Assembly (NCBI GenBank): GCA_963802505.1
Contig: CAWDJB010000008.1
Span: 134,112 to 198,111 of the forward strand
Direction of reading: 5' to 3'
Length of the DNA: 64,000 nt
Source: an uncultured Acidimicrobiales bacterium
Lineage (GTDB): Bacteria > Actinomycetota > Acidimicrobiia > Acidimicrobiales > DATKAS01
Under the pieces are notes generated by a model that was not told the DNA's origin, ran no database searches, and was given only the letters and a program-made list of their open reading frames with translations. Position numbers and translations under genes: made by a program. Of the stretch, positions 10,837 to 50,615 are shown piece after piece (positions within the stretch are counted from its first letter, which is position 1; every line of letters starts with the position of its first letter).

Positions 10837-12531
<1,695 letters not shown>

Positions 12532-12542
12532 GCAATCCGAAG

Positions 12543-12585
12543 GAAGTCGGGTGGGTGTTCGCACTCACCCGACTTCTTCGATTTT
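12543..12585 (+). terminator. Intrinsic terminator after groEL
   Basis: GAAGTCGGGTGGGTG-TTCG-CACTCACCCGACTTC forms a stem of about 15 bp. It is followed by the T-rich run TTCGATTTTC. Confidence 0.75.
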
Positions 12586-12602
12586 CGGGCGATGATGGAC
12601 CG

Positions 12603-13067
12603 GTGGCAGACCTGCACCCGATGATCGAGCCGCTGGCGTTCTTGCTCGGCACGTGGTCGGGCCAGGGCGTGGGGGAGTACCCGACGATCGAGACGTTCCC
12701 GTATCTCGAGACCGTCACGTTCGACCACGTCGGCAAGCCGTACCTCTCCTATGTGCAGCGCACGACGCACCCCGATGGCACCCCGACGCACGGCGAGCTC
12801 GGGTTCTGGCGGTTGCCCTCCCCGAACAGCGTCGAGCTCGTCGCAATCCACCCGTTCGGTGCGACGGAGATGGCTGTCGGCTCGTTGTCGGGATCGACGA
12901 TCGACCTGCAGTCGATGTCGGTCGTGTCGACGCCTGCGGCGAAGGTCGTCACCGGCGTCGAACGCACTCTCACGGTCGACGGCGATGTCCTGCGCTACAC
13001 CGTGCGGATGGCTGCAGTCGGTCAACCGATGACCCACCACCTCTCCGCCGAGCTCCGCCGCGCCTGA
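12603..13067 (+). CDS. Nitrobindin-like heme-binding beta-barrel protein (FABP/DUF1794 family)
   Basis: ORF 12555..13067 trimmed to the GTG at 12603, because the longer start lies inside the groEL terminator. LLGTWSGQGVGEYPTIETFPYLETVTFDHVGKPYLSYVQRT...LRYTVRMAAVGQPMTHHLSAEL parallels the mycobacterial nitrobindin (Rv2717c-type) as I recall it. Confidence 0.75.
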   Translation: MADLHPMIEPLAFLLGTWSGQGVGEYPTIETFPYLETVTFDHVGKPYLSYVQRTTHPDGTPTHGELGFWRLPSPNSVELVAIHPFGATEMAVGSLSGSTIDLQSMSVVSTPAAKVVTGVERTLTVDGDVLRYTVRMAAVGQPMTHHLSAELRRA

Positions 13068-13073
13068 CTCGCG

Positions 13074-13661
13074 ATGCGCCGTGTCGACGTCACCACCTGG
13101 TCGCTGGAGATGCGCGACCGCTCGCTACTTCGCCCAGCGGGCGCGCCGAAGATCCCGATCGCGATCGAGCAGGCGGTCGAGCCCCAACCCGAGCTGAACC
13201 GGTTCCTCTACACGGCGGTCGGCGGCGACTGGTACTGGCTGGGGCGCCTGCCGTGGACCTACGAGCGGTGGACGATGTGGCTCGACCGTCCCGAGGTCGA
13301 GACCTGGGTGGCCCGCAGCGGAGGAAGCCCCGCCGGGTACTTCGAGCTCGAGCGCCAGGACGGCACCGAGGTCGAGATCGCGTACTTCGGCCTCATGCCC
13401 CAGTTCATCGGCCGGGGCGCCGGAGGGCACCTCCTCACCGTCGCGCTCGAGCGGGCATGGGCGATCCCCGAGGTCAGGAGGGTCTGGGTGCACACGTGCA
13501 GCCTCGATCACCCCTCCGCGCTGGCCAACTACCAAGCGCGCGGCCTCGAGATCTTCGCCGTCGAGATGGAGAGCCACGACCTGCCCGACCGGCCTCCGGG
13601 GCCCTGGCCTGGGGCCAATTCGGCCCCGCGCGATACCGGCACCTCGCGTTTCGACCGATAA
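13074..13661 (+). CDS. GNAT-family N-acetyltransferase
   Basis: 195 aa, 6 nt after the previous stop. It carries the acetyl-CoA binding-type block FIGRGAGGHLLTVALERAW. Confidence 0.75.
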   Translation: MRRVDVTTWSLEMRDRSLLRPAGAPKIPIAIEQAVEPQPELNRFLYTAVGGDWYWLGRLPWTYERWTMWLDRPEVETWVARSGGSPAGYFELERQDGTEVEIAYFGLMPQFIGRGAGGHLLTVALERAWAIPEVRRVWVHTCSLDHPSALANYQARGLEIFAVEMESHDLPDRPPGPWPGANSAPRDTGTSRFDR

Positions 13662-13667
13662 TGACGC

Positions 13668-14330
13668 ATGGCCATGGGGGTCCGGCGATTCGCGCTCGTG
13701 GCAGTCGTGGGCGCTGTCGCGGCCGCATCGACGTCCTGCGCGAGCTCGGGCTTCACGTACGTGAAGAACAGCGGCGAGGGCGCGTACTTCAAGGTCCCCG
13801 AGGACTGGAAGCTCTACAAGCTCGACCCCAACGCGCTTCCTGACGATCGGCCGTTCCCCGACGGCGCTGATCAGCAGCTCGCGGACGGGCCCTGGCGGGT
13901 CGTGTTCGACAGCGACGCGAAGCCCGACGTCACCCACTTCCAGGACGACATCCCCGAGGCCGTCGTCGGCCAGGCCGAGATCAGCCCGATCGGCCAGAGC
14001 GTCAGAGATCAGGTGTCGAACGTCGACCTCCGGGCGCTCGCGCTCGACGGCACCGCTGACCCGATCGCGCTGTACGAGCAGGGCAGCACCGACATCGAGA
14101 TCGTGAAGTACGAGCAGCTCACCACCGGCGAGGGCCTCCGCGGCAACCGCATCGTCCTCAACAAGCTGGTCAACGGCAGCTACGTGACGATCGATCAGAT
14201 CGCGCTTGTCGATCCGGGCACCACTACCTTGTACCGGTTCCTCGTCAAGTGCTCATCGAAGTGCTATCTGCAGCATCGGAGCGAGATCGACACTGTGGTC
14301 GACTCGTGGCAGATCAGGAAGAAGAGCTGA
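13668..14330 (+). CDS. Hypothetical secreted lipoprotein
   Basis: 220 aa. It has a signal peptide followed by Cys (VVGAVAAASTSCASS). No recognisable catalytic motif. It lies 6 nt after the GNAT gene and 1 nt before the FtsH-like gene. Confidence 0.6.
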   Translation: MAMGVRRFALVAVVGAVAAASTSCASSGFTYVKNSGEGAYFKVPEDWKLYKLDPNALPDDRPFPDGADQQLADGPWRVVFDSDAKPDVTHFQDDIPEAVVGQAEISPIGQSVRDQVSNVDLRALALDGTADPIALYEQGSTDIEIVKYEQLTTGEGLRGNRIVLNKLVNGSYVTIDQIALVDPGTTTLYRFLVKCSSKCYLQHRSEIDTVVDSWQIRKKS

Positions 14331-14331
14331 C

Positions 14332-16797
14332 ATGAGCATCGCCTGGCCCGATCCGTCGCCGCCTCCCCCTCCGCCTCCCCCGCCCGTCCACGTGCCGGTG
14401 CCAGCGGTCGAGGTGAAGCACACCCGCAAGAAGCTGGCGTTCTGGGACCGCTCGAAGATCCTGATCTTCATCGCGTTGCTGTTCGCGTTCCTCGTGTGGA
14501 ACGACATGGCGGACAACCCGATCATCCCGTTCCGCGACGCGCTGCGCGAGACGGCCCGGGCGAAGTGGTGGTTCTTCCTCGCCTTCGTGCTCGAGCTCGT
14601 TCGCCAGATCCACTACGTGATCTGCGAGCACTCCGCTCGTTACAACATGTTCTGGGAAGACAAGGTGTTCGGCCGCTGGAACAAGCGCGCCGACCGCATG
14701 AACCCCTGGACGCGCTTCCGCATCGCGCGGGCCTTCAAGTTCGTGTTCGTCAGCATCGTGCTCTGCGTGTTCTTCGCCGGCCGGTGGGACGTCACCCCGG
14801 TCGAGGCGTTCTTCCAGGCGCCGTCACGGATCTACGACATCCTCTTCTCGACCGCGCAGGGTCTTCCGTTCATCTTCCAGATCGTCATGCTGCTCGGCCT
14901 CGCCGTGGGGCAGTTCGTCGCGATCTTCTGGTTCCTCTCGCGCGGTGGCGTCGACACCTACTACCCCGACGACATCAAGACCCGGTTCTCGGATGTGTGG
15001 GGCCAGGATCCGGTGCTCGATCGTGTCAAAGAGAACGTCATGTTCCTCGAGGACCCCGAGAAGATCGAGAGCAAGGGCGGCCACGTGCCTTCGGGCATCT
15101 TGCTGTGGGGGCCTCCCGGCACCGGCAAGACGCTGATGGCGGAAGCGGTTGCCGGTGAGACCGGCCGGCCGTTCGTCTTCGTCGACCCGGGCGCGTTCAC
15201 GAACATGTTCTTCGGGGTCGGCATCCTCAAGGTGAAGTCGCTCTTCCGCAAGCTGCGCAAGCTCGCCCTGCGCTACGGCGGCGTGATCGTGTTCTTCGAC
15301 GAGGCCGACACCCTCGGCAACCGCGGTCAGCTCGCCCAGGGCGGCGGCGGCTGGAGCGACAGCAACCAGCTTCCGTTCAACACGTGCTGCAACTCGCTCG
15401 ACTACGTGTCCGAGCACACGCGGGCCGAGCTGTGGCGGTGGAACGCTCCGCTCGAGCCTGTCGCACCCGAGGTCGGGGGAATCCGCGGCTTCGTCATGGG
15501 CGCGGGGATGGGCGGCGGCGGCGGAGGCATGGGCACGCTGCAGGCCCTGTTGACCGAGCTGTCCGGCCTCAAGAAGCCGCGAGGGTTCTTCAACCGCTTC
15601 GTGCGCCGCCTGCTGTCGATGAAGCCGAAGCCCCCGCCGAAGTACCGCATCCTCGTGATGATGGCGACGAACATGCCGCAGGCTCTCGACGAGGCGCTGC
15701 TGCGCCCCGGCCGCATCGACCGCATTTACAAGGTCGGCTACCCCTACCTCGAAGGACGCACGCGCACCTTCCAGGGCTACCTCGACAGGGTGAAGCACTC
15801 GCTGACGCCCGAGGAAGTCGAGAAGCTCGCGCTGATGTCGCCGTACGCGACGGGCGCCACGATCAAGGACGTCGTGAACGAGGCCCTCATCGTCGCGATC
15901 CGCGACGGTCGCGACACGGTCGAGTACGCGGACGCGCTGAAGGCGAAGCACCTGAAGAACAACGGCCCCGCCGACGACTGGAAGTACGCCGACTGGGAGC
16001 GCCACGCGGTCGCCATCCACGAGGCCTCGCACGCCGTTGCGATGTACCGCCTGCAGAAGCGCGAGATGATCGACGTCGCGACGATCGAACGCCGCGGTGG
16101 CACCGGAGGCTTCGTGGCTCCCGTGCCCCTCGAAGAGCAGTTCGTCGACTGGAAGTCGGGCAAGGAGCGCGACGTCATCACGTTCGTCGCGTCGCTCGCC
16201 GGTGAGCGCCTCTTCTTCGAGGGCGACAACTCCGCGGGCGTGGGTGGCGACCTGCAGAACGCGACCGCGATCGTCGCTGGGATGGAGGCCTACGCAGGGA
16301 TGGGCTCGACGGTCGGATCGCGCGGCTACATGCCCGGCGCGGCGTCGGCCACGGGCAGCGTGATCACGGGCGAGGACCGCAACTTCCTCGAGACCGAGCT
16401 CGGCCGTCGGGTCGAGACGAGGCTGAAAGAGCTGCTCGAGCGCGCGCACGGCATGCTCGTCGAGGATCGCCGGTACGTGTTGGCGATCGCCCACGCCCTC
16501 GAGACGCACAAGACGATCACGGGCGAGGACATCGTCGCGATCTTCGAAGGCGGACGCGGTCCGACCCTCGACGGCGGCGTGTATCACACCGACGACTTCA
16601 TGATCTCCTACGAGGCGTACCACCTGAGTGTGGTCGCCGCGCACCAGAGCCAGGGCTCGCCCGAGAAGCCGCTGCCGGTCTTCCAAGCCGTCACGCAGAG
16701 CATCCTCGTGCCGATCGGGAACGGCAACGGAAACGGCAACGGGGCCAAGACCGAGGTCGAGCACTCCGAGCCGCTTCCTCCCCCGCAGGAGCGATGA
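14332..16797 (+). CDS. Atypical FtsH-family membrane AAA+ zinc metalloprotease
   Basis: The ATG at 14332 lies within ORF 14206..16797. Motifs present are Walker A GPPGTGKT, pore loop MFFG, Walker B FFDEAD, ATN...LLRPGRIDR, zinc site HEASH and a downstream GGDLQNAT. The N-terminus has a poly-Pro run and four hydrophobic helices. Confidence 0.85.
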   Translation: MSIAWPDPSPPPPPPPPPVHVPVPAVEVKHTRKKLAFWDRSKILIFIALLFAFLVWNDMADNPIIPFRDALRETARAKWWFFLAFVLELVRQIHYVICEHSARYNMFWEDKVFGRWNKRADRMNPWTRFRIARAFKFVFVSIVLCVFFAGRWDVTPVEAFFQAPSRIYDILFSTAQGLPFIFQIVMLLGLAVGQFVAIFWFLSRGGVDTYYPDDIKTRFSDVWGQDPVLDRVKENVMFLEDPEKIESKGGHVPSGILLWGPPGTGKTLMAEAVAGETGRPFVFVDPGAFTNMFFGVGILKVKSLFRKLRKLALRYGGVIVFFDEADTLGNRGQLAQGGGGWSDSNQLPFNTCCNSLDYVSEHTRAELWRWNAPLEPVAPEVGGIRGFVMGAGMGGGGGGMGTLQALLTELSGLKKPRGFFNRFVRRLLSMKPKPPPKYRILVMMATNMPQALDEALLRPGRIDRIYKVGYPYLEGRTRTFQGYLDRVKHSLTPEEVEKLALMSPYATGATIKDVVNEALIVAIRDGRDTVEYADALKAKHLKNNGPADDWKYADWERHAVAIHEASHAVAMYRLQKREMIDVATIERRGGTGGFVAPVPLEEQFVDWKSGKERDVITFVASLAGERLFFEGDNSAGVGGDLQNATAIVAGMEAYAGMGSTVGSRGYMPGAASATGSVITGEDRNFLETELGRRVETRLKELLERAHGMLVEDRRYVLAIAHALETHKTITGEDIVAIFEGGRGPTLDGGVYHTDDFMISYEAYHLSVVAAHQSQGSPEKPLPVFQAVTQSILVPIGNGNGNGNGAKTEVEHSEPLPPPQER

Positions 16798-17477
16798 GCG
16801 AACCACTCACGCCCACCGCAGGGTGGGGAGTGCTCCATCTGTTCTGCAAGGTCACCCCGGCGGCAGACGGTGGCGCGATCACTGCGGCGATGAAGCGCGC
16901 GTCAGAAGGCGATCACCAGGTGGTCACCGCGGTGCTGCTCGGGCACAAGGCCGACTTCGCCGTGATGGCCGTCGGGCCCGACTTCTGGCGGCTCCACGCC
17001 CTGCAGGCCGATCTGCAGGCCGCGGGCCTCACGATCGCCGACTCGTACGTGTCGCTCACCGAGATCAGCGAGTACGCGAAGGGTCTGCCTGAGGCGATGC
17101 TCGAAGCGCGGCTTCACCCGAAGCTGCCGCCCGAGGGGAAGCCCGCGTTCTGCTTCTATCCGATGTCGAAGCGTCGCAACGTCGGGCAGAACTGGTTCTC
17201 GCTGCCCTACGACGAGAGGCTCGAGCTGATGCACGGCCACGGCAAGACGGGCCGCACGTTCGCGGGGCGGGTGCTGCAGCTCATCACCGGGTCGACGGGG
17301 CTCGACGACTACGAGTGGGGCGTGACGCTCTTCGCGGTGCACCCCGACGATCTGAAGGATGTCGTGTACACGATGCGCTTCGACGAGGCGTCGGCGACCT
17401 ACGCCGAGTTCGGGCGCTTCTTCGTCGGGATGGTCTGCCCGATCGACGAGCTGACGACCCGCCTGAACCTGGGCTAG
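16794..17477 (+). CDS. chdC: Coproheme decarboxylase / hydrogen peroxide-dependent heme synthase (chlorite dismutase family)
   Basis: 227 aa. The ATG overlaps the upstream stop (ATGA). GWGVLHLFCKV...FCFYPMSKRR...NWFSLPYDERLELMHGHGKTGR...GLDDYEWGVTLF... is typical of HemQ/ChdC. Confidence 0.88.
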   Translation: MSEPLTPTAGWGVLHLFCKVTPAADGGAITAAMKRASEGDHQVVTAVLLGHKADFAVMAVGPDFWRLHALQADLQAAGLTIADSYVSLTEISEYAKGLPEAMLEARLHPKLPPEGKPAFCFYPMSKRRNVGQNWFSLPYDERLELMHGHGKTGRTFAGRVLQLITGSTGLDDYEWGVTLFAVHPDDLKDVVYTMRFDEASATYAEFGRFFVGMVCPIDELTTRLNLG

Positions 17478-18763
17478 GGGCCGACCTGGATCTGACGCTC
17501 GGTGGTGTCGGTGCCGTCGGGGTTGTAGACGAACACGTCGTAGGTGCCGCGGCTGGGGTCGCCGATGTCGGTGAAGTCGAGCGGGCCCGAGGCGCCCTCG
17601 TAGTCGATGTTGCGACCGAGGTCGAGCAGGCGCTTGCAGCTCTCGTAGGTGCGGCACGGGACACCGCCGCGGGTGACGTTGACGATCTCGTCTCTGATCA
17701 ACGTGCCGTCGTCGGACCGGGTCGCCTGCGCTGCCAGAGCGAGGATCACCGCGCAGTCGTAGGCGTAGGACGCGAAGGTCGAGGGTGAGCCCGGCGCGAA
17801 GGCGGCGAACTCGTCGCCGAACGTGCTCCCGAACGTCGTCGGCGCCGTCGCGACTGCGGTGCCGCGGATGCCCGCGGTCGCGTCCGGACGAGCCGAGTCG
17901 ACCTGCTGATACAGGTTCGGCACGCGGAGGCCGTCGGTCACGAACGTGGGCAGGTGGTCCGGTCCTGCGCCGAGGTCGATCAGCTTGCGAAGCACGAGAC
18001 CTGCGGTGTCGGGCAGACCGATGACTGCGATCGCCTCAGGGTCGGTCTCGAGCACGCGCCGGACGTCGGGAGCGAAGTTGGTGCCGTTCGGGTCGTACGC
18101 ATAGTTGATGGTCACGCGGATGCCGTTCACCCGCAGCTGGTCGACGAGCACGTCGGACAGGCCTCTGCCGTAGTCGTCGTTCGGGCTCATCAGCGCGACC
18201 GTCTGATAGCCACCTTCGGCGATGACCTCCGCGAGCGCGACACCCTGCAAGCGGTCGGACGGTGCGGAGCGCACGTAGTACCCGTCGTCAGGGAATTGTT
18301 CGAGCGCGAGGGCTGTGTTCGAAGGTGAGCATGTGAGGACCCCGCCCGCGGACGTGCGGCCGAGCACGCTCAACGCGGTCGTCGATGATGCCGGGCCGAT
18401 CAGCACGTCGATCTTCTCGCTGTTGAGGAGGCGATCGACCGTCACGCCGGCGACGGACGGGTCGTCGCCCTCGTCGCCGCCGACGAGCGTCAGCGCCTCG
18501 CCGTTCACGCCACCCGCCGCGTTGATGTCGCGGACGGCCATCTCGATGCCCTTGATCATGGGGGGACCGACGCTCGCCGACTGGCCCGACACGGGCAAGA
18601 GGTAGCCGACGCGCAGCACTCCGTCGACGTTGCCGCGGTCGGGGATCGTCGGTACTGGCGCTTCGCTCGAGGTCGGGGACGCGCCGGTCCCGTCGTCGCT
18701 GCATCCTGCAGCGATCAGGCCGAGCGCGACCACGAACGCTGTGAGGGCCCGGCTCGCGCTCAC
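17474..18763 (-). CDS. ABC transporter substrate-binding lipoprotein (branched-chain amino acid / LivJ-like family)
   Basis: 429 aa with a GTG start. It has a lipobox (LIAAGCS) and the type I periplasmic binding fold blocks LRVGYLLPVSGQSASVG...AVRDINAAGGVNG. It is the last gene of the liv-type operon. Confidence 0.85.
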   Translation of the reverse strand: MSASRALTAFVVALGLIAAGCSDDGTGASPTSSEAPVPTIPDRGNVDGVLRVGYLLPVSGQSASVGPPMIKGIEMAVRDINAAGGVNGEALTLVGGDEGDDPSVAGVTVDRLLNSEKIDVLIGPASSTTALSVLGRTSAGGVLTCSPSNTALALEQFPDDGYYVRSAPSDRLQGVALAEVIAEGGYQTVALMSPNDDYGRGLSDVLVDQLRVNGIRVTINYAYDPNGTNFAPDVRRVLETDPEAIAVIGLPDTAGLVLRKLIDLGAGPDHLPTFVTDGLRVPNLYQQVDSARPDATAGIRGTAVATAPTTFGSTFGDEFAAFAPGSPSTFASYAYDCAVILALAAQATRSDDGTLIRDEIVNVTRGGVPCRTYESCKRLLDLGRNIDYEGASGPLDFTDIGDPSRGTYDVFVYNPDGTDTTERQIQVGP

Positions 18764-45050: not shown

Positions 45051-46512
45051 GGCCGATCGCGACGAGCAGCAGCGCGACGAGGACGATCGGGCGGTCGCCC
45101 CAACGCACGTAGATCGTCTCGCCCGCGCGTTTGCGGACATCCATCTGCAGCACTTTGCGCTCGCTGATCGCGGTGCGCGCTTTCAAGTGCCCGGTGTCGT
45201 CGACGAAGGCGGTGAAGCCGGTCGGTGCCACCTGCCCCACCCACCGGCCGGTCTCGAGCGCGCGAAGCCGAGACGCGTTGATCTGCTGCGTCTGCAGCAA
45301 CGTGCCCGTGTACGACGCGCCGTTCGTCGGGTTGAGGAGGACCTCGCCGCCGTGGCCGATGGCGTCGCGGGCGCGACCGCCGAAGAAGACCTCCCACGAG
45401 ATGACGACGCCGATGCGACCTTCGGGCGTGTCGAGCACCGCAGGCCCGTGTCCGGCGATGGCGTCGCGCGGTACCTCGTCGGTCGGCGCGCCGATCGCGT
45501 GGAGGATCCGGCGGAACGGCATGTACTCGCCGAACGGGACACGACGCACCTTCTCGTAGCGCGCGATCTCGGCGCCCGTGGCATCCCAGGCGATCTGCGA
45601 GTTGCGGAAGTGGTGCTCGCCCGCGCCCTCGATCACGCCGGCGGTGAGAGGGGCGCCCAGGCTCCGCGCCAGCGCGGCGAGGTCGGCGCCTTCGGGCGTG
45701 TCGCCGACAGGCCCTTCGACGTGCACTGTGTTCTCGGGCCACACCACGAGATCGACGGGGGTCTTCACGTCGTTGGACGCGGCGAGGTGGCGTTCGAAGA
45801 CGAGGCGCTCGTCGGTCGCGCTCGCGTGTGTCCCTTGCGGGCCGCCGCCCTGCACGAGAGCGATGTTCATGGGACCGATGTCGTGACCGCGGGGTGCGAC
45901 GGCTGCGAACCCGACCACGAGCGCGATCGCGGCGGCACCGACGGCCACCGCCATCCAGGCGCGTTCCCACGCGGCCGAGATGGTGACGCCGATGATCACC
46001 ACGAGCATGACGAGCAGCGGCGCGCCGCCGACCCGCACGACGAACGCGACGGGCGAGACCGCTTGGCTGATCGCGAACGATGCGAGCGGCACCCCGCCGA
46101 ACGGCCATGACCACCTGAGGATCTCGGCCAGCACGATCGAACCGGGGAGCACGACCCATCGCCAGCGGCTCGCGGGAGCGATCGCGCAGGCGACGCCGAA
46201 CCAGACGGAGGAGATCAGTGAAGCGACCACCCAGCCGGGCGCGGTGAGGAACACCATCCAGCCCATGCCCGGGAAGAGCCACGCCGCGGCGACCGCCCAT
46301 CCGCGCCAGAACCGGCTGCGCGCCGGTCGGCCCGCCAGAAGGCGGTCGAGGAAGACCACGCCCACGATCAGCAGCGGCCACCATCCCCAAGGGGGAAGCG
46401 AGAGCGCCATGAGCGCGCCCGTGCCGAGGCACGCCGCGATCGTGACGAGCCGCGGTGGGATGCGTGCGCGCGTGCGCGCCGAATCTCCCACAGGGGCCTC
46501 GGTGTCGACCAT
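45004..46512 (-). CDS. lnt: Apolipoprotein N-acyltransferase
   Basis: Trimmed to the ATG at 46512, which overlaps the sortase stop. It has a polytopic N-terminus followed by a CN-hydrolase domain (VVWPENT...[13 protein letters not shown]...ISWEVFF). Confidence 0.85.
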
Positions 46513-47204
46513 CAGACCGCGGCGGAGTTGACGTAGGTCAGGTGCACCACGAAGCGAAAGCGCGCTGACCCAGGCGGATGGCACGCGAAGAGCGTCGCCG
46601 TCTTGCCCGCCGATTGGTTGACGATGTACATCGCGTCGGGCTTCACGATCTCGTTGCTCACGAACGTGTACGTGTGCTGTCCGCTGCCGATCGTGAAGAT
46701 CACCTGATCGCCCGGCCCGAGCTGATCGATGTAGCGGAAGGGGCGACTGTGGGTGACCCGGTGGCCCGCGACCACCACGTTGCCTGTCTGGCTCGGCAGC
46801 GCGGTGCCGGGCCAGTGACCCGGACCCTTGTTCAGCGTCGTGAGCGTGACGCCCTCGAACAGCACCGCGTTGATGCCGAGCCTCGGGATGGCGATCGTGC
46901 CGATCCGGTTCTCGGGCTCGGGCGCGAGCGCGTTCTTCGGGGACGGAGCCGGAGTGGGAAGCGGCGTTGCGGTCACCGCTGGGGCCGGCGCTGCAGTCGT
47001 CGCTGGCAGCGTGCTCGGTGGAAGCGTGGTCGCTGCCGTGGTCGGCGCCGAGGTCGTCGCGGTCGAGGCGGGAGCGTCAGTGGCGGGTGCATCGGCGAGA
47101 CCGGGATCGTCGTCGACGGAGCTCTTCCCGCCGCATGCCGCGACGACGAGCGCCCCGGCGCCCGCAACGAGGAAGGTCCGCCGATCCATCCGCCCCATTT
47201 TCAC
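46512..47204 (-). CDS. Sortase-family transpeptidase (class E/F-like)
   Basis: 230 aa with an N-terminal signal or anchor and a Thr/Ala/Pro linker. The catalytic His (VVAGHR), Cys (TLFACHP) and Arg (RFRFVV) are present. Confidence 0.75.
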   Translation of the reverse strand: MKMGRMDRRTFLVAGAGALVVAACGGKSSVDDDPGLADAPATDAPASTATTSAPTTAATTLPPSTLPATTAAPAPAVTATPLPTPAPSPKNALAPEPENRIGTIAIPRLGINAVLFEGVTLTTLNKGPGHWPGTALPSQTGNVVVAGHRVTHSRPFRYIDQLGPGDQVIFTIGSGQHTYTFVSNEIVKPDAMYIVNQSAGKTATLFACHPPGSARFRFVVHLTYVNSAAV

Positions 47205-48616
47205 GCGCGCGCGGTGCCCGCGCGTAGTCGGGTCGTGAGGATGCGTGCCGCCGTCTGGCCCTGCCGGATGCAGGCGGGTATGCCGAGGCCGCGGTAGGCG
47301 GCGCCGGCGAGGACGACGGTCGGGGCGTGGGCCGCCAGGTGACGGACCGCCTCGTCGACGCGCTCGAGGTGACCGGGTCTGTACTGGGGAAATGACCGGG
47401 GCCAGCGGCTCACTCTCACTTCAGTCGGCGCGCCGCGCAGATCCATGAGGCGGCCGAGGTCGCTGAGCATCTCGCCGACCAGGTCTTCGTCGGTGAGCCC
47501 GACGGCGTGGTCGTCGCCGTCTCGACCTGCGGAGGCGCGCACGATGGCCTGACCAGGGGTGCGCCAGTGCGCCCACTTCGTCGACGCCCACGACGCCGCC
47601 GTGACGGTCCGCTGGGTGGGCTTGGGTACGAGCAGGCCGGTCGCGTCGAGCGGGCGGCCGATCGCGGCGTCGTCGAACGCGAAGGTGACGAGGGCGACCG
47701 ACGCGTAGTCGATGCCGAGGAGAGTGGCCGCGACCTCGGGGACGGCGTCGACGAGCAAGCGGGCCGATGCGTGAGCCGGACATGCCAAGACCACCGCGTC
47801 GGCGTCGATTCGGCGTGGATTCGCCGCCGATGCGCCCGTCGTGACCTGCACGGCTCCGCGTTCGTCGATCTCGACGGACTCCACGGGGGCGTCCAGCTCG
47901 ATGGTCGCGGGCGGCTCGGCGACGGCCAGTGACGCCGCGAGCGCGTCGATCAGGCCGCCCATCCCGCCGCGGAGTGTGAAGAAGACGGGCGCTGTCGGAT
48001 CGGGCGGGTGTGCCCGCCGGTCGGCGCGCAGCCCGAGCAGCAATGACCGGGATCGCTCGGCGACCCCTGCCACCTGCGGCGCCACCGCCAGCGCGCTCAG
48101 CCGGTCGGCGTCGCCGGCGTTGATCCCCCCGATGAGCGGATCGACGAGCCGCTCGAGCACCTCTCGCCCGAACCGCGACGAGACGAGCGGACCGAGGGCG
48201 TCGGGCGGCGTCGACCGCCGCGGCAGCAACGGTTCGAGCGCGGCCCGCGCCATCCCGCCCACGCCGAGGATCCCCGATCGCGCGACGGGGAGGATCTCTC
48301 CGGGAACGCCCAACGCGAGGCCGGCAGGCAGCCGGCGCAGTCGTCCCCGCGCCCACACGTAGGCACCCGCGTTCGACGGCGACACGAGCTGGTCGCCGAG
48401 CCCGAGCCGCTGGCACAGCGCGACGGCTTCGGGTACCCGCGCGAGAAACGCATCGGCCGCCTCGTCGACCTCGAGCCCTGCGAACCGGGACGTGCGGATG
48501 TTGCCGCCCAAGCGGGACGCGGCTTCCAACACGGTCACCTCGACACCGGACTCGACGAGCTCGAGGGCGCACGCGAGGCCGGTGATGCCTCCGCCGACGA
48601 CGACGACGCGGGTCAC
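47201..48616 (-). CDS. hemY: Protoporphyrinogen/coproporphyrinogen III oxidase (HemY/CgoX type, FAD-dependent)
   Basis: The GTG at 48616 overlaps the hemE stop (GTGA). The N-terminus is VTRVVVVGGGITGLACALEL...LEAASRLGGNI. Confidence 0.85.
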   Translation of the reverse strand: MTRVVVVGGGITGLACALELVESGVEVTVLEAASRLGGNIRTSRFAGLEVDEAADAFLARVPEAVALCQRLGLGDQLVSPSNAGAYVWARGRLRRLPAGLALGVPGEILPVARSGILGVGGMARAALEPLLPRRSTPPDALGPLVSSRFGREVLERLVDPLIGGINAGDADRLSALAVAPQVAGVAERSRSLLLGLRADRRAHPPDPTAPVFFTLRGGMGGLIDALAASLAVAEPPATIELDAPVESVEIDERGAVQVTTGASAANPRRIDADAVVLACPAHASARLLVDAVPEVAATLLGIDYASVALVTFAFDDAAIGRPLDATGLLVPKPTQRTVTAASWASTKWAHWRTPGQAIVRASAGRDGDDHAVGLTDEDLVGEMLSDLGRLMDLRGAPTEVRVSRWPRSFPQYRPGHLERVDEAVRHLAAHAPTVVLAGAAYRGLGIPACIRQGQTAARILTTRLRAGTARA

Positions 48617-49623
48617 GTGCTGTGAACCAGCTCGACCAGCCGAGCGAGGACACCCGGATCGGTCTGGGGGAGCACGCCGTGGCCCAAGTTGAAGATGTGG
48701 CGCGGACCCGTCCCCGCGCGGGCGATGACGTCGAGCGCGCGCTGCTCCACCACCGGCCACTCGCCCAGGCAGACCGCGGGATCGAGGTTGCCTTGCAACG
48801 TCACGTCACCGCCGACGCGAGCGCGCGCCACGTCGAGCGGCACCCGCCAGTCGACACCGAGCACGTCGGTTCCGGCAGCCACCATCAGCTCGAGCAGCTC
48901 GCCGGTGCCGACCCCGAAGTGGATACGCGGGACGCCCAGGTCGGCAACGCCCTCGAAGACCTTGCGGCTCGCGGGCAGCACGAGCGACTCGTAGTCGGGC
49001 GCGCTCAGGTCACCCACCCAGCTGTCGAACACCTGCACTGCTCGAGCCCCCGCACCCACCTGCGCGCGCAGCGCGGCGATCGCGAGGTCGGCCAAGCGGT
49101 CGAGCAATTCTCGCCACAGCTCGGGGTCGCCGTACATCAACGCCTTCGTGCGCTCGTACGTCCGCGACGGCCGTCCCTCGATGAGGTAGCTCGCGATCGT
49201 GAACGGCGCGCCGGCAAAGCCGATCACGGGCACGTCGAGCTCCGCGCAGAGGATCTTGATGGTCTCGATCACGTAGGGGATGTCGAGCTCGGCTTCGAGC
49301 GGTCGGATGCGGCCGAGATCGGCGCGAGATCGGAATGGCTGCTCGGTCACTGGACCTGTTCCCGGCGCGACATCGACACCGAAGCCGATCGCCGCGATCG
49401 GCACGACGATGTCGCTGTAGACGATGGCGGCGTCGACGCCGTACCGCCGCACTGGTTGCATCGTGATCTCAGCCGCCACCTCGGGCTTGTGGATCGCGTC
49501 GAGGATGCTGCCCTCACCTCGGATCGCGAGGTACTCCGGCAGTGAGCGGCCCGCCTGGCGCATGAACCAGACCGGCCGCTGTTCGTGCGGCTCACCGCGG
49601 CACGCAGCCAGGAACGCACTCAT
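48613..49623 (-). CDS. hemE: Uroporphyrinogen decarboxylase
   Basis: The ATG at 49623 gives MSAFLAACRGEPHEQRPVWFMRQAGRSLPEY, the hallmark HemE N-terminus. It overlaps the patatin-like stop (ATGA). Confidence 0.92.
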   Translation of the reverse strand: MSAFLAACRGEPHEQRPVWFMRQAGRSLPEYLAIRGEGSILDAIHKPEVAAEITMQPVRRYGVDAAIVYSDIVVPIAAIGFGVDVAPGTGPVTEQPFRSRADLGRIRPLEAELDIPYVIETIKILCAELDVPVIGFAGAPFTIASYLIEGRPSRTYERTKALMYGDPELWRELLDRLADLAIAALRAQVGAGARAVQVFDSWVGDLSAPDYESLVLPASRKVFEGVADLGVPRIHFGVGTGELLELMVAAGTDVLGVDWRVPLDVARARVGGDVTLQGNLDPAVCLGEWPVVEQRALDVIARAGTGPRHIFNLGHGVLPQTDPGVLARLVELVHST

Positions 49624-50615
49624 GCCGCCCCCTTCAACAGCTCCACCGCGGGCGCTGATGCGACATGTGCGAGATGTGCACGCGCCGATCGCTGCGCTTG
49701 CCCGACCACCGAGACCATCCGTGACGAATCCATCGCGTTGATCCCCATGACGCGTGTGTCGACCGTCGTCGGCTCGAAGCACAGGATCGTCGTGCCCGAA
49801 CCGAACGCGCCGAGCTCACGACGCAACGTGCCGCGATGGAAGCCGCGTGTCGCAGCGCGCATGTTGAACAGCAGCGCATCGGTGCGCGCCGACATCGGCG
49901 ACACGACGACGACGAGGTCGAGACCGATGCCGGCGACGAGGTCTGCGTTGGTCGGGGAGTGCGTGCCACCGTCGACGTAACGCTCGCCGTCGATCACGAC
50001 CGGAGCGAAGTAGCCCGGGATGGCCGACGACGCCTCGACCGCCGTGCCGACGTCGGGCTCAGGTGACGCGTCGCGCCCGAAGACGACCCGCGCCCCATCG
50101 CTCAGCCGGAGCGCGCAGATCCAGAGCGGCTCTTCCGGCCAGCGAGTGCGATGGAGCCGACGCATGCGGTCACCCATCCCGGTCGTGGGCACGCGGCCCT
50201 CGGGCGCCAGGGCGGCAAGCGCGCGGCCGGGGCGGAACCGCCACGGGGTCATCAGATCGCGCGCCAGCAACATCGGCGCCTCAGGCAGCGGCATCCGCGC
50301 AGCGACCTGCGGCTGCATGCGCGGCGGTTGCAGGCGCTCCATCCCCTTCAGCAGCGCCGCGCCCTCGGCTGAGAGCGGTTCGCCGGTGATGCGGGCCGCG
50401 AAATCGGGCGCGGCGAGGCCGGCTCGCAACGTCGCGCCGACGCCTGACCCGGCCGAGGTGCCCACGATCACGGCGGCGCGACGCGGGTCCCAGCCGGTGA
50501 CCTCAGCGATCGTGGCGAGCGTGCCTGCGTGGTAGGCGTGACCCACCACGCCACCGGCTCCGAGCACCAGGCCGACGGATGTCACCGGCACATGGTTCCA
50601 CGCAGCCCCGTTCAC
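49620..50615 (-). CDS. Patatin-like phospholipase
   Basis: The oxyanion GxGxxG (LGAGGVVG), the GxSxG serine (GTSAGS) and the DG(G) Asp (VDGGTHSPTN) are present. The start is uncertain (GTG 50615, 50591 or 50660). Confidence 0.8.
   Translation of the reverse strand: MNGAAWNHVPVTSVGLVLGAGGVVGHAYHAGTLATIAEVTGWDPRRAAVIVGTSAGSGVGATLRAGLAAPDFAARITGEPLSAEGAALLKGMERLQPPRMQPQVAARMPLPEAPMLLARDLMTPWRFRPGRALAALAPEGRVPTTGMGDRMRRLHRTRWPEEPLWICALRLSDGARVVFGRDASPEPDVGTAVEASSAIPGYFAPVVIDGERYVDGGTHSPTNADLVAGIGLDLVVVVSPMSARTDALLFNMRAATRGFHRGTLRRELGAFGSGTTILCFEPTTVDTRVMGINAMDSSRMVSVVGQAQRSARAHLAHVASAPAVELLKGAA

Follow-up and report, generated by a model that had tools for sequence, protein, structure and literature searches.

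Positions 12603-17477 of the 64,000-nucleotide (nt) stretch of DNA analysed here, called the window below and coming from an uncultured bacterium of the order Acidimicrobiales, hold five closely packed genes on the forward strand. They encode a nitrobindin-like protein, a GNAT acetyltransferase, a lipoprotein, an atypical paralogue of the membrane protease FtsH, and the coproheme decarboxylase ChdC (HemQ). An earlier note on this DNA took them for a heme-flavoured functional module. Comparison with relatives suggests instead, with a probability that we put at roughly 0.7, that the cluster is a composite operon peculiar to its lineage, in which three layers of different age have come together. 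The first layer would be a groEL...chdC backbone, in which chdC stands on the same strand behind the groEL terminator hairpin, with a variable slot between the two genes. The second would be a lipoprotein-FtsH cassette, seated at the chdC-proximal end of the slot in about a quarter of Acidimicrobiales families, and the third would consist of late additions upstream of the cassette, i.e., nitrobindin in a few lineages and GNAT in this genus only. The inherited adjacency of the FtsH paralogue and chdC would give chdC a transcriptional ride, and it is not good evidence for action of the protease on heme synthesis. The cluster does not behave as a dedicated heme module, because chdC tracks groEL and the protease tracks the lipoprotein. 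The features concerned, with coordinates and gaps based on the open reading frame (ORF) list of the window, are:

10903-12531, forward strand: groEL, GroEL2-type, a 542-amino-acid ORF with no groES upstream
12538-12580, forward strand: terminator-like hairpin of groEL, with a 14+5 base-pair stem, a UUCG loop and an AUUUUC tail
12603-13067, forward strand: nitrobindin-like gene with a GTG start; translation could equally well begin at the in-frame ATG at 12621
13074-13661, forward strand: GNAT acetyltransferase gene (PF00583, 5.9e-10)
13668-14330, forward strand: lipoprotein gene, with a lipobox and no match in Pfam, NCBIfam or PADLOC
14332-16797, forward strand: gene of the atypical FtsH paralogue, with AAA and Peptidase_M41 domains and the HEASH motif
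16794-17477, forward strand: chdC (hemQ), Chlor_dismutase (PF06778, 6e-46)

The gene identities, proposed earlier from the sequence, are backed by Pfam and NCBIfam matches and by the lipobox.

The FtsH-like protein and ChdC were searched for in 60 relatives of the window genome (10 of the same genus, 50 from other families of Acidimicrobiales), and the backbone was mapped by tblastn of the window proteins onto the fetched loci. ChdC is encoded in 58 of the 61 genomes, the window genome included. In all 20 paralogue-free genomes of other families chdC lies downstream of groEL on the same strand, and it is still found behind groEL in the three families that carry the paralogue elsewhere; altogether, this order is seen in 23 of the 23 genomes without the FtsH paralogue at the site. 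The distance between the two genes in these 23 genomes is 19-6010 nt, and is 258 nt or less in nine of them. At all Acidimicrobiales loci examined, the groEL gene upstream of chdC is 82-96% identical to that of the window, and in most of the relatives a long G+C hairpin comes after it. In the window, the terminator claimed for groEL was borne out by direct folding (-35.4 kcal/mol, z = -3.95; none of 200 shuffled sequences did as well), having been missed by a simple consensus scan for promoters and terminators. The groEL-terminator...chdC arrangement is thus an order-wide backbone of Acidimicrobiales, and its slot holds from 0 to 6 kb of assorted genes, which in other families include FdhD and molybdopterin oxidoreductase. 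Where the lipoprotein-FtsH cassette is present, such insertions are always upstream of the lipoprotein gene; only in one family (G035) does an ORF stand between the protease gene and chdC. Where groEL and chdC are closest, fewer than 100 nt lie between the groEL stop and the start of chdC, and the short gaps raise the question of whether chdC is expressed there by read-through of the chaperonin terminator.

The protease gene keeps other company. A sample of 400 Actinomycetota genomes contained the paralogue in 25, including families of other classes. Twenty of these genomes belong to other orders, and none has chdC or groEL closer than about 7 kb to the paralogue; chdC is encoded elsewhere in 19, and the lipoprotein gene is found upstream of the paralogue in at least 16. 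A scan of named species in GTDB, with the aligned N-terminal membrane domain that is specific to the paralogue as query, revealed at least 551 relatives in species genomes of Actinomycetota. Their cultured carriers include Microbispora, Actinoplanes, Paractinoplanes, Cryptosporangium, Nonomuraea and Spirillospora, and the closest relatives of the window protein come from metagenome-assembled genomes (MAGs) labelled "uncultured Acidimicrobiales bacterium". Neighbours were counted at the best 80 of these at least 551 relatives, 77 of them informative upstream and 67 downstream. At 75 of the 77 loci, from Acidimicrobiia and Actinomycetes, the paralogue is immediately preceded by the lipoprotein gene; chdC is downstream in 9 of the 67, all labelled Acidimicrobiales or Acidimicrobiia. 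In two families of another class (f72 and f96; ten loci), an Lrp/AsnC-like regulator, the lipoprotein, the paralogue and a 463-amino-acid CysS/MshC-like ligase are encoded in a row on the same strand; in other lineages the genes downstream of the paralogue are diverse, e.g., those of response regulators or of a PP2C phosphatase, and often lie on the opposite strand. Across distant lineages, then, it is the lipoprotein-paralogue adjacency that is conserved, and the paralogue-chdC adjacency is limited to one order and to one groEL...chdC slot. The conserved unit is the lipoprotein together with the four-transmembrane FtsH paralogue, which form a phylum-wide cassette.

Within Acidimicrobiales, orthologues of the paralogue (more than 50% identity, more than 700 bits) occur in this genus and in 13 other families. 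The chdC gene is directly downstream in nine of these families, at a contig end in one of them; three families keep both genes on different contigs, and in one (G054) the locus is broken by a contig end. Adjacency is therefore found in about 10 of the 14 paralogue-bearing families of the order, about nine besides this genus, at 50-60% protein identity. At the ORF level the junctions measure -4, +4, -4/+23, -8, +9, -4/+17, +19 and +58 nt, the exception being G035 with +486 nt and a 144-amino-acid ORF between the genes, so that the junction is tight (-8 to +58 nt) in nine of the ten adjacent families. Every informative locus of the order has the lipoprotein gene immediately before the paralogue, in one family (G046) only as a divergent copy. 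The earlier note had proposed a check of neighbourhood conservation; when run, it showed that the adjacency with its tight junction recurs beyond close relatives, in about nine other families. Co-transcription of the paralogue and chdC is likely within the order, because the tight junctions recur across families.

These same observations can be read as a functional link between heme synthesis and proteolysis in Acidimicrobiales, where lipoprotein, paralogue and ChdC would form a unit and the protease would scaffold or control the last heme step. ChdC or heme-free apoproteins might be its substrates, or it might couple the release of heme b to the insertion of membrane cytochromes, with nitrobindin serving as a buffer of heme or reactive nitrogen. 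The adjacency in about 10 of 14 paralogue-bearing families, with short junctions in nine of ten, fits such a unit, and so do the spread of adjacent copies over the paralogue tree (see below) and the way slot insertions avoid the protease-chdC junction. However, chdC stays beside groEL in all 23 genomes where the paralogue is missing from the site, and the three families with the two genes on different contigs do without the adjacency. The link disappears altogether outside the order, in 0 of 20 genomes, 19 of which do have chdC, and the paralogue family has unrelated downstream partners there. All adjacent cases share one slot in one order, which amounts to one event, and the remaining two members of the cluster, nitrobindin and GNAT, are sporadic. 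Regulated proteolysis of ChdC does have a precedent, through a different protease, since ChdC of Mycobacterium tuberculosis has been reported to be a substrate of the Clp protease (PMC12962153). The literature searched, on ChdC/HemQ together with FtsH, GroEL, gene neighbourhood or Actinobacteria, contains no description of a linkage to FtsH or groEL. On balance we consider a functional link unlikely, and prefer to see the adjacency as synteny that was inherited along with a common transcript.

The history of the adjacency was approached with a maximum-likelihood tree of 98 paralogues, rooted by the canonical FtsH of the window genome; the outgroup branch is very long and many forks are unresolved. 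The chdC-adjacent copies do not group as a single clade: over 15 rows the label requires 13 changes, of which at least four are forced by well-supported branches. Adjacent copies are found at the base and at unresolved positions among Acidimicrobiales lineages, and the clades of Actinomycetes, f72 and f59 are nested within. Taken at face value, the 13 changes could mean that the cassette was inserted beside chdC several times independently under selection, and this, if true, would be strong evidence of a functional link. But every adjacent case occupies the same groEL...chdC slot of one order, and repeated insertion with a precise junction of 0-20 nt is mechanistically unlikely. The nesting of non-adjacent clades from other classes within Acidimicrobiales copies fits export or relocation of the cassette, and many forks are unresolved beneath an uncertain root. 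Repeated insertion is, in our judgement, very improbable. The pattern would rather represent a paraphyletic ancestral state than multiple gains, at least as we interpret the tree. One old placement of the cassette before chdC, followed by its repeated loss, relocation or export, is the parsimonious account, favoured because one slot of one order accommodates every adjacent case. The adjacent cases are best counted as one historical arrangement and not as repeated independent evidence.

Several points weigh against this composite reading. The backbone of the tree is poorly resolved and its root sits on a long branch, which makes the ancestral placement parsimonious rather than demonstrated. Tight adjacency survives in lineages that span nearly the full depth of the paralogue tree; this persistence exceeds what neutral synteny needs, and there may be some selection for a single three-gene transcript. 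And no promoter of sigma-70 type was detected for the five-gene cluster by the consensus scan of the locus, which also missed the terminator; a single transcript is read from the spacing only.

In the window itself, the five genes are separated by gaps of 6, 6 and 1 nt and end with a 4-nt ATGA overlap, exactly as claimed before and as reproduced in the ORF list. These distances (6, 6, 1, -4 nt), together with the terminator upstream, fit a five-gene operon, and the genes are probably co-transcribed in this genus from a point just 3' of the groEL terminator, with chdC as the last gene. That terminator ends only about 22 nt ahead of the GTG at 12603, and within this space a GATGAT hexamer (12591-12596) is a speculative -10 box for a leaderless transcript starting at 12603. 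The same-strand run stops at chdC, where a convergent gene for an ABC substrate-binding protein (17474-18763, reverse strand) overlaps the chdC stop by 4 nt. This stop/stop overlap at 17474-17477 leaves no space for a terminator between the convergent transcripts.

The cluster could also be a chance juxtaposition peculiar to this genus, neither an operon nor a product of shared history, as the confinement of GNAT and of the exact five-gene order to the genus might seem to indicate. Chance of this kind is hardly credible when the gaps are 6, 6, 1 and -4 nt, the lipoprotein-FtsH-chdC string recurs in about nine other families, and the groEL...chdC arrangement is order-wide. What is indeed restricted is the upstream part. 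Nitrobindin is present in the slot in just three lineages, i.e., this genus and two others (G051/L146 and L121), and GNAT in this genus only, with tblastn matches at just four loci, all of the same genus. The five genes as a set are therefore not a conserved module: with a sporadic nitrobindin, a genus-specific GNAT and a chdC that follows groEL, the heme-flavoured five-gene module of the earlier note has to be given up. Of the more specific heme-protease unit proposed there, the part that survives is the adjacency conserved within the order and a plausible co-transcription; the part that does not is the five-gene module and any linkage to chdC beyond the order, absent in 20 of 20 genomes. In several same-genus MAGs (six genomes of the order survey and three fetched loci), the genes of nitrobindin, lipoprotein, FtsH-like protein and chdC are broken by frameshifts or in-frame TGA codons, which looks like long-read assembly error rather than pseudogenisation.

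Other genes of heme synthesis are found in the same window, about 30 kb from chdC, which lies downstream of groEL:

46512-47204: sortase gene, next downstream of hemY
47201-48760, reverse strand: hemY (CgoX-like), maximal ORF; Amino_oxidase, 2.9e-55
48613-49782, reverse strand: hemE (UroD), maximal ORF; URO-D, 7.4e-119

The hemE-hemY pair (47201-49782) was said to have no chdC partner, and this is confirmed, a sortase gene being next after hemY. A second chdC or a pseudogene near the pair can be set aside, given that sortase gene and the single Chlor_dismutase match in the genome-wide search of this 4.41-Mb genome. Ferrochelatase is encoded on another contig (C3:709306-710211, forward strand); its gene happens to be about 8.5 kb from the canonical ftsH (C3:718761-720170, reverse strand), probably by coincidence. 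Because chdC is single-copy, with hemE, hemY and ferrochelatase elsewhere in the genome, it is the housekeeping copy of a complete coproporphyrin-dependent pathway, in the context of UroD, CgoX and CpfC. In M. tuberculosis, chdC is Rv2676c, for which a common operon with UroD has been predicted (PMC12962153).

A heme module, if real, would have tied the making of a cofactor to proteolysis at the membrane. The comparison shows instead how synteny shared by a whole order can lend a mobile cassette of two genes the look of a functional bond with the gene next to it. Three results seem to us to outlast the particular cluster. One is that the only chdC of Acidimicrobiales stands directly after the terminator of groEL, and another is the Firmicutes/Thermus type of the window ChdC (see below). 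The third, and the more interesting object, is the pair of a PsbP-fold lipoprotein and an FtsH paralogue, a widespread uncharacterised pair of Actinomycetota that is now defined and that, occurring in cultivable genera such as Microbispora and Actinoplanes, is open to ordinary genetics. As a doubtful speculation, the paralogue might recruit or tune ChdC at the membrane, for handover of heme b to membrane cytochromes or for removal of ChdC under peroxide or heme stress; more generally, the pair might be an undescribed two-component envelope protease system of at least 551 actinobacterial species, in which the lipoprotein would act as extracytoplasmic sensor or adaptor. Two contigs labelled Gemmatimonadales and Acidobacteria also bear the lipoprotein-paralogue pair, at about 50% identity; mis-binning or horizontal transfer could explain them. 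An anti-phage defence system was also considered and rejected, since the only PADLOC matches were generic AAA ones (IetA, TRIP13) to the paralogue, and the other four proteins had none.

The paralogue shares with canonical FtsH (that of Escherichia coli, and the structures from Aquifex aeolicus, 6GCN, Thermotoga maritima, 2CE7, and Thermus thermophilus, 2DHR) an N-terminal membrane anchor, the AAA+ domain followed by M41, Walker A and B, the pore-1 loop MF[MF]G[VI]G, the sensor-1 Asn, RPGRIDR and HExxH. In the window protein these appear as GPPGTGKT, FFDEAD, MFFGVG, ATN and RPGRIDR, all present, and HEASH. Among the 98 family members each of these motifs is conserved to at least 96%, and HEASH is kept as HE[A][CS]H in 97. 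The M41 domain matches PF01434 at 68.6 bits (cut-off 29.9; residues 555-736), and the AAA match in Pfam is split, covering residues 256-332 and resuming from 439. With all ATPase and zinc-protease motifs intact, the protein is most likely an active membrane AAA+ zinc protease. Its gene is the second M41 gene of the genome, and it is a paralogue and not the housekeeping FtsH, because its scores fall short of the cut-offs of both TIGR01241 (252 versus 600 bits) and PRK10733 (164 versus 1008) and the canonical ftsH is found on contig C3.

Three further features set it apart from canonical FtsH. In place of two membrane segments flanking an FtsH_ext domain, for which Pfam gives no match in the paralogue, the hydropathy scan shows four hydrophobic segments with short loops in the N-terminal 215 residues; the N-terminus is Pro-rich, and a conserved cytoplasmic segment RQxHY...FW is present. 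Second, the alignment of the paralogue with A. aeolicus FtsH falls into two blocks, 215-346 and 440-739, between which about 93 residues replace about 18 at the position of the pore-2 loop, between Walker B and sensor 1. This insert (residues 347-439, window positions 15360-15650) contains a Gly/Met-rich tract and a conserved CxGxxY motif, with Cys in 87 and Tyr in 81 of the 98 relatives; the median spacing from Walker B to sensor 1 in the family is 118 amino acids. Third, the gene is paired with that of the PsbP-fold lipoprotein, as in the 75 of 77 named loci mentioned above. The lipoprotein probably supplies in trans the extracytoplasmic module that the paralogue is missing.

The lipoprotein, which has no Pfam, NCBIfam or PADLOC family, carries a lipobox (AASTS-C) with Cys24, followed by the conserved motif GSGYxYVxNSxxxxYFKVPxxW. 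An AlphaFold2 model built from a 53-sequence alignment (predicted local distance difference test score 93.8, predicted template modelling score 0.90) places it in the PsbP/Mog1p-type α/β sandwich fold. Foldseek with this model retrieves CyanoP, PsbP, LpqN, Mtc28, DcrB and Eag, with the best E about 2e-6 and template modelling (TM) scores of 0.5-0.7. Across the solved members of the fold (CyanoP 2LNJ/2XB3, LpqN 6E5D, Mtc28 4PWS, DcrB 6E8A, Eag 6XRF) E ranges from 2e-6 to 1e-3 and TM from 0.45 to 0.70, at an identity of only 9-14%. Several of these relatives are themselves lipoproteins or partners in membrane complexes; to our knowledge, a gene partnership with an FtsH paralogue has been described for none of them.

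The nitrobindin-like protein (PF08768, 164.9 bits, 1.8e-48) is predicted to be a heme-binding β-barrel similar to THAP4. Its closest solved structure is the nitrobindin/peroxynitrite isomerase Rv2717c of M. tuberculosis (2FR2, 6R3W), to which it aligns over the full length at 142 bits, with the C-terminal proximal His in register (...QPMTHHL... in the window protein, ...QPLQDHL... in Rv2717c). It differs from Rv2717c in scoring below the NCBIfam equivalog cut-off (NF045819, 199 versus 225 bits) and in a position behind groEL that is limited to a few lineages.

ChdC (PF06778, 156.9 bits against a cut-off of 25) resembles the clade-1 coproheme decarboxylases, i.e., HemQ of Geobacillus stearothermophilus (1T0T/5T2K) and ChdC of Listeria monocytogenes (5LOQ/6FXJ), whose chains it matches at 143-154 bits, with G. 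stearothermophilus HemQ the best solved relative at 154 bits. In the alignment to 1T0T the segments CFYPMSKRR, HGHGKTGR and QLITGS are in register, so that the catalytic Tyr and Lys (YPMxK), the proximal His and the distal Gln are kept; we take the roles of these residues to be those in the enzymes of Staphylococcus aureus and L. monocytogenes. The match to the actinobacterial-type ChdC of Corynebacterium diphtheriae is only 26 bits, and the actinobacterial family NF042928 (HemQ_actino) gives 45 bits against a cut-off of 235. By these comparisons the window ChdC is of clade 1, the Firmicutes/Thermus type, and not of the actinobacterial type, despite coming from an actinobacterial class. It also stays just short of PRK12276 (216.8 versus 253 bits), apparently a near miss by a divergent lineage.

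Finally, the window encodes the same three enzymes of the coproporphyrin pathway as the hemE-hemY-chdC cluster of M. tuberculosis, where the full gene order is presumably Rv2678c-Rv2676c. Unlike in that cluster, chdC of the window is split from hemE-hemY, and its place behind groEL is common to the whole of Acidimicrobiales and not a property of this genome alone.

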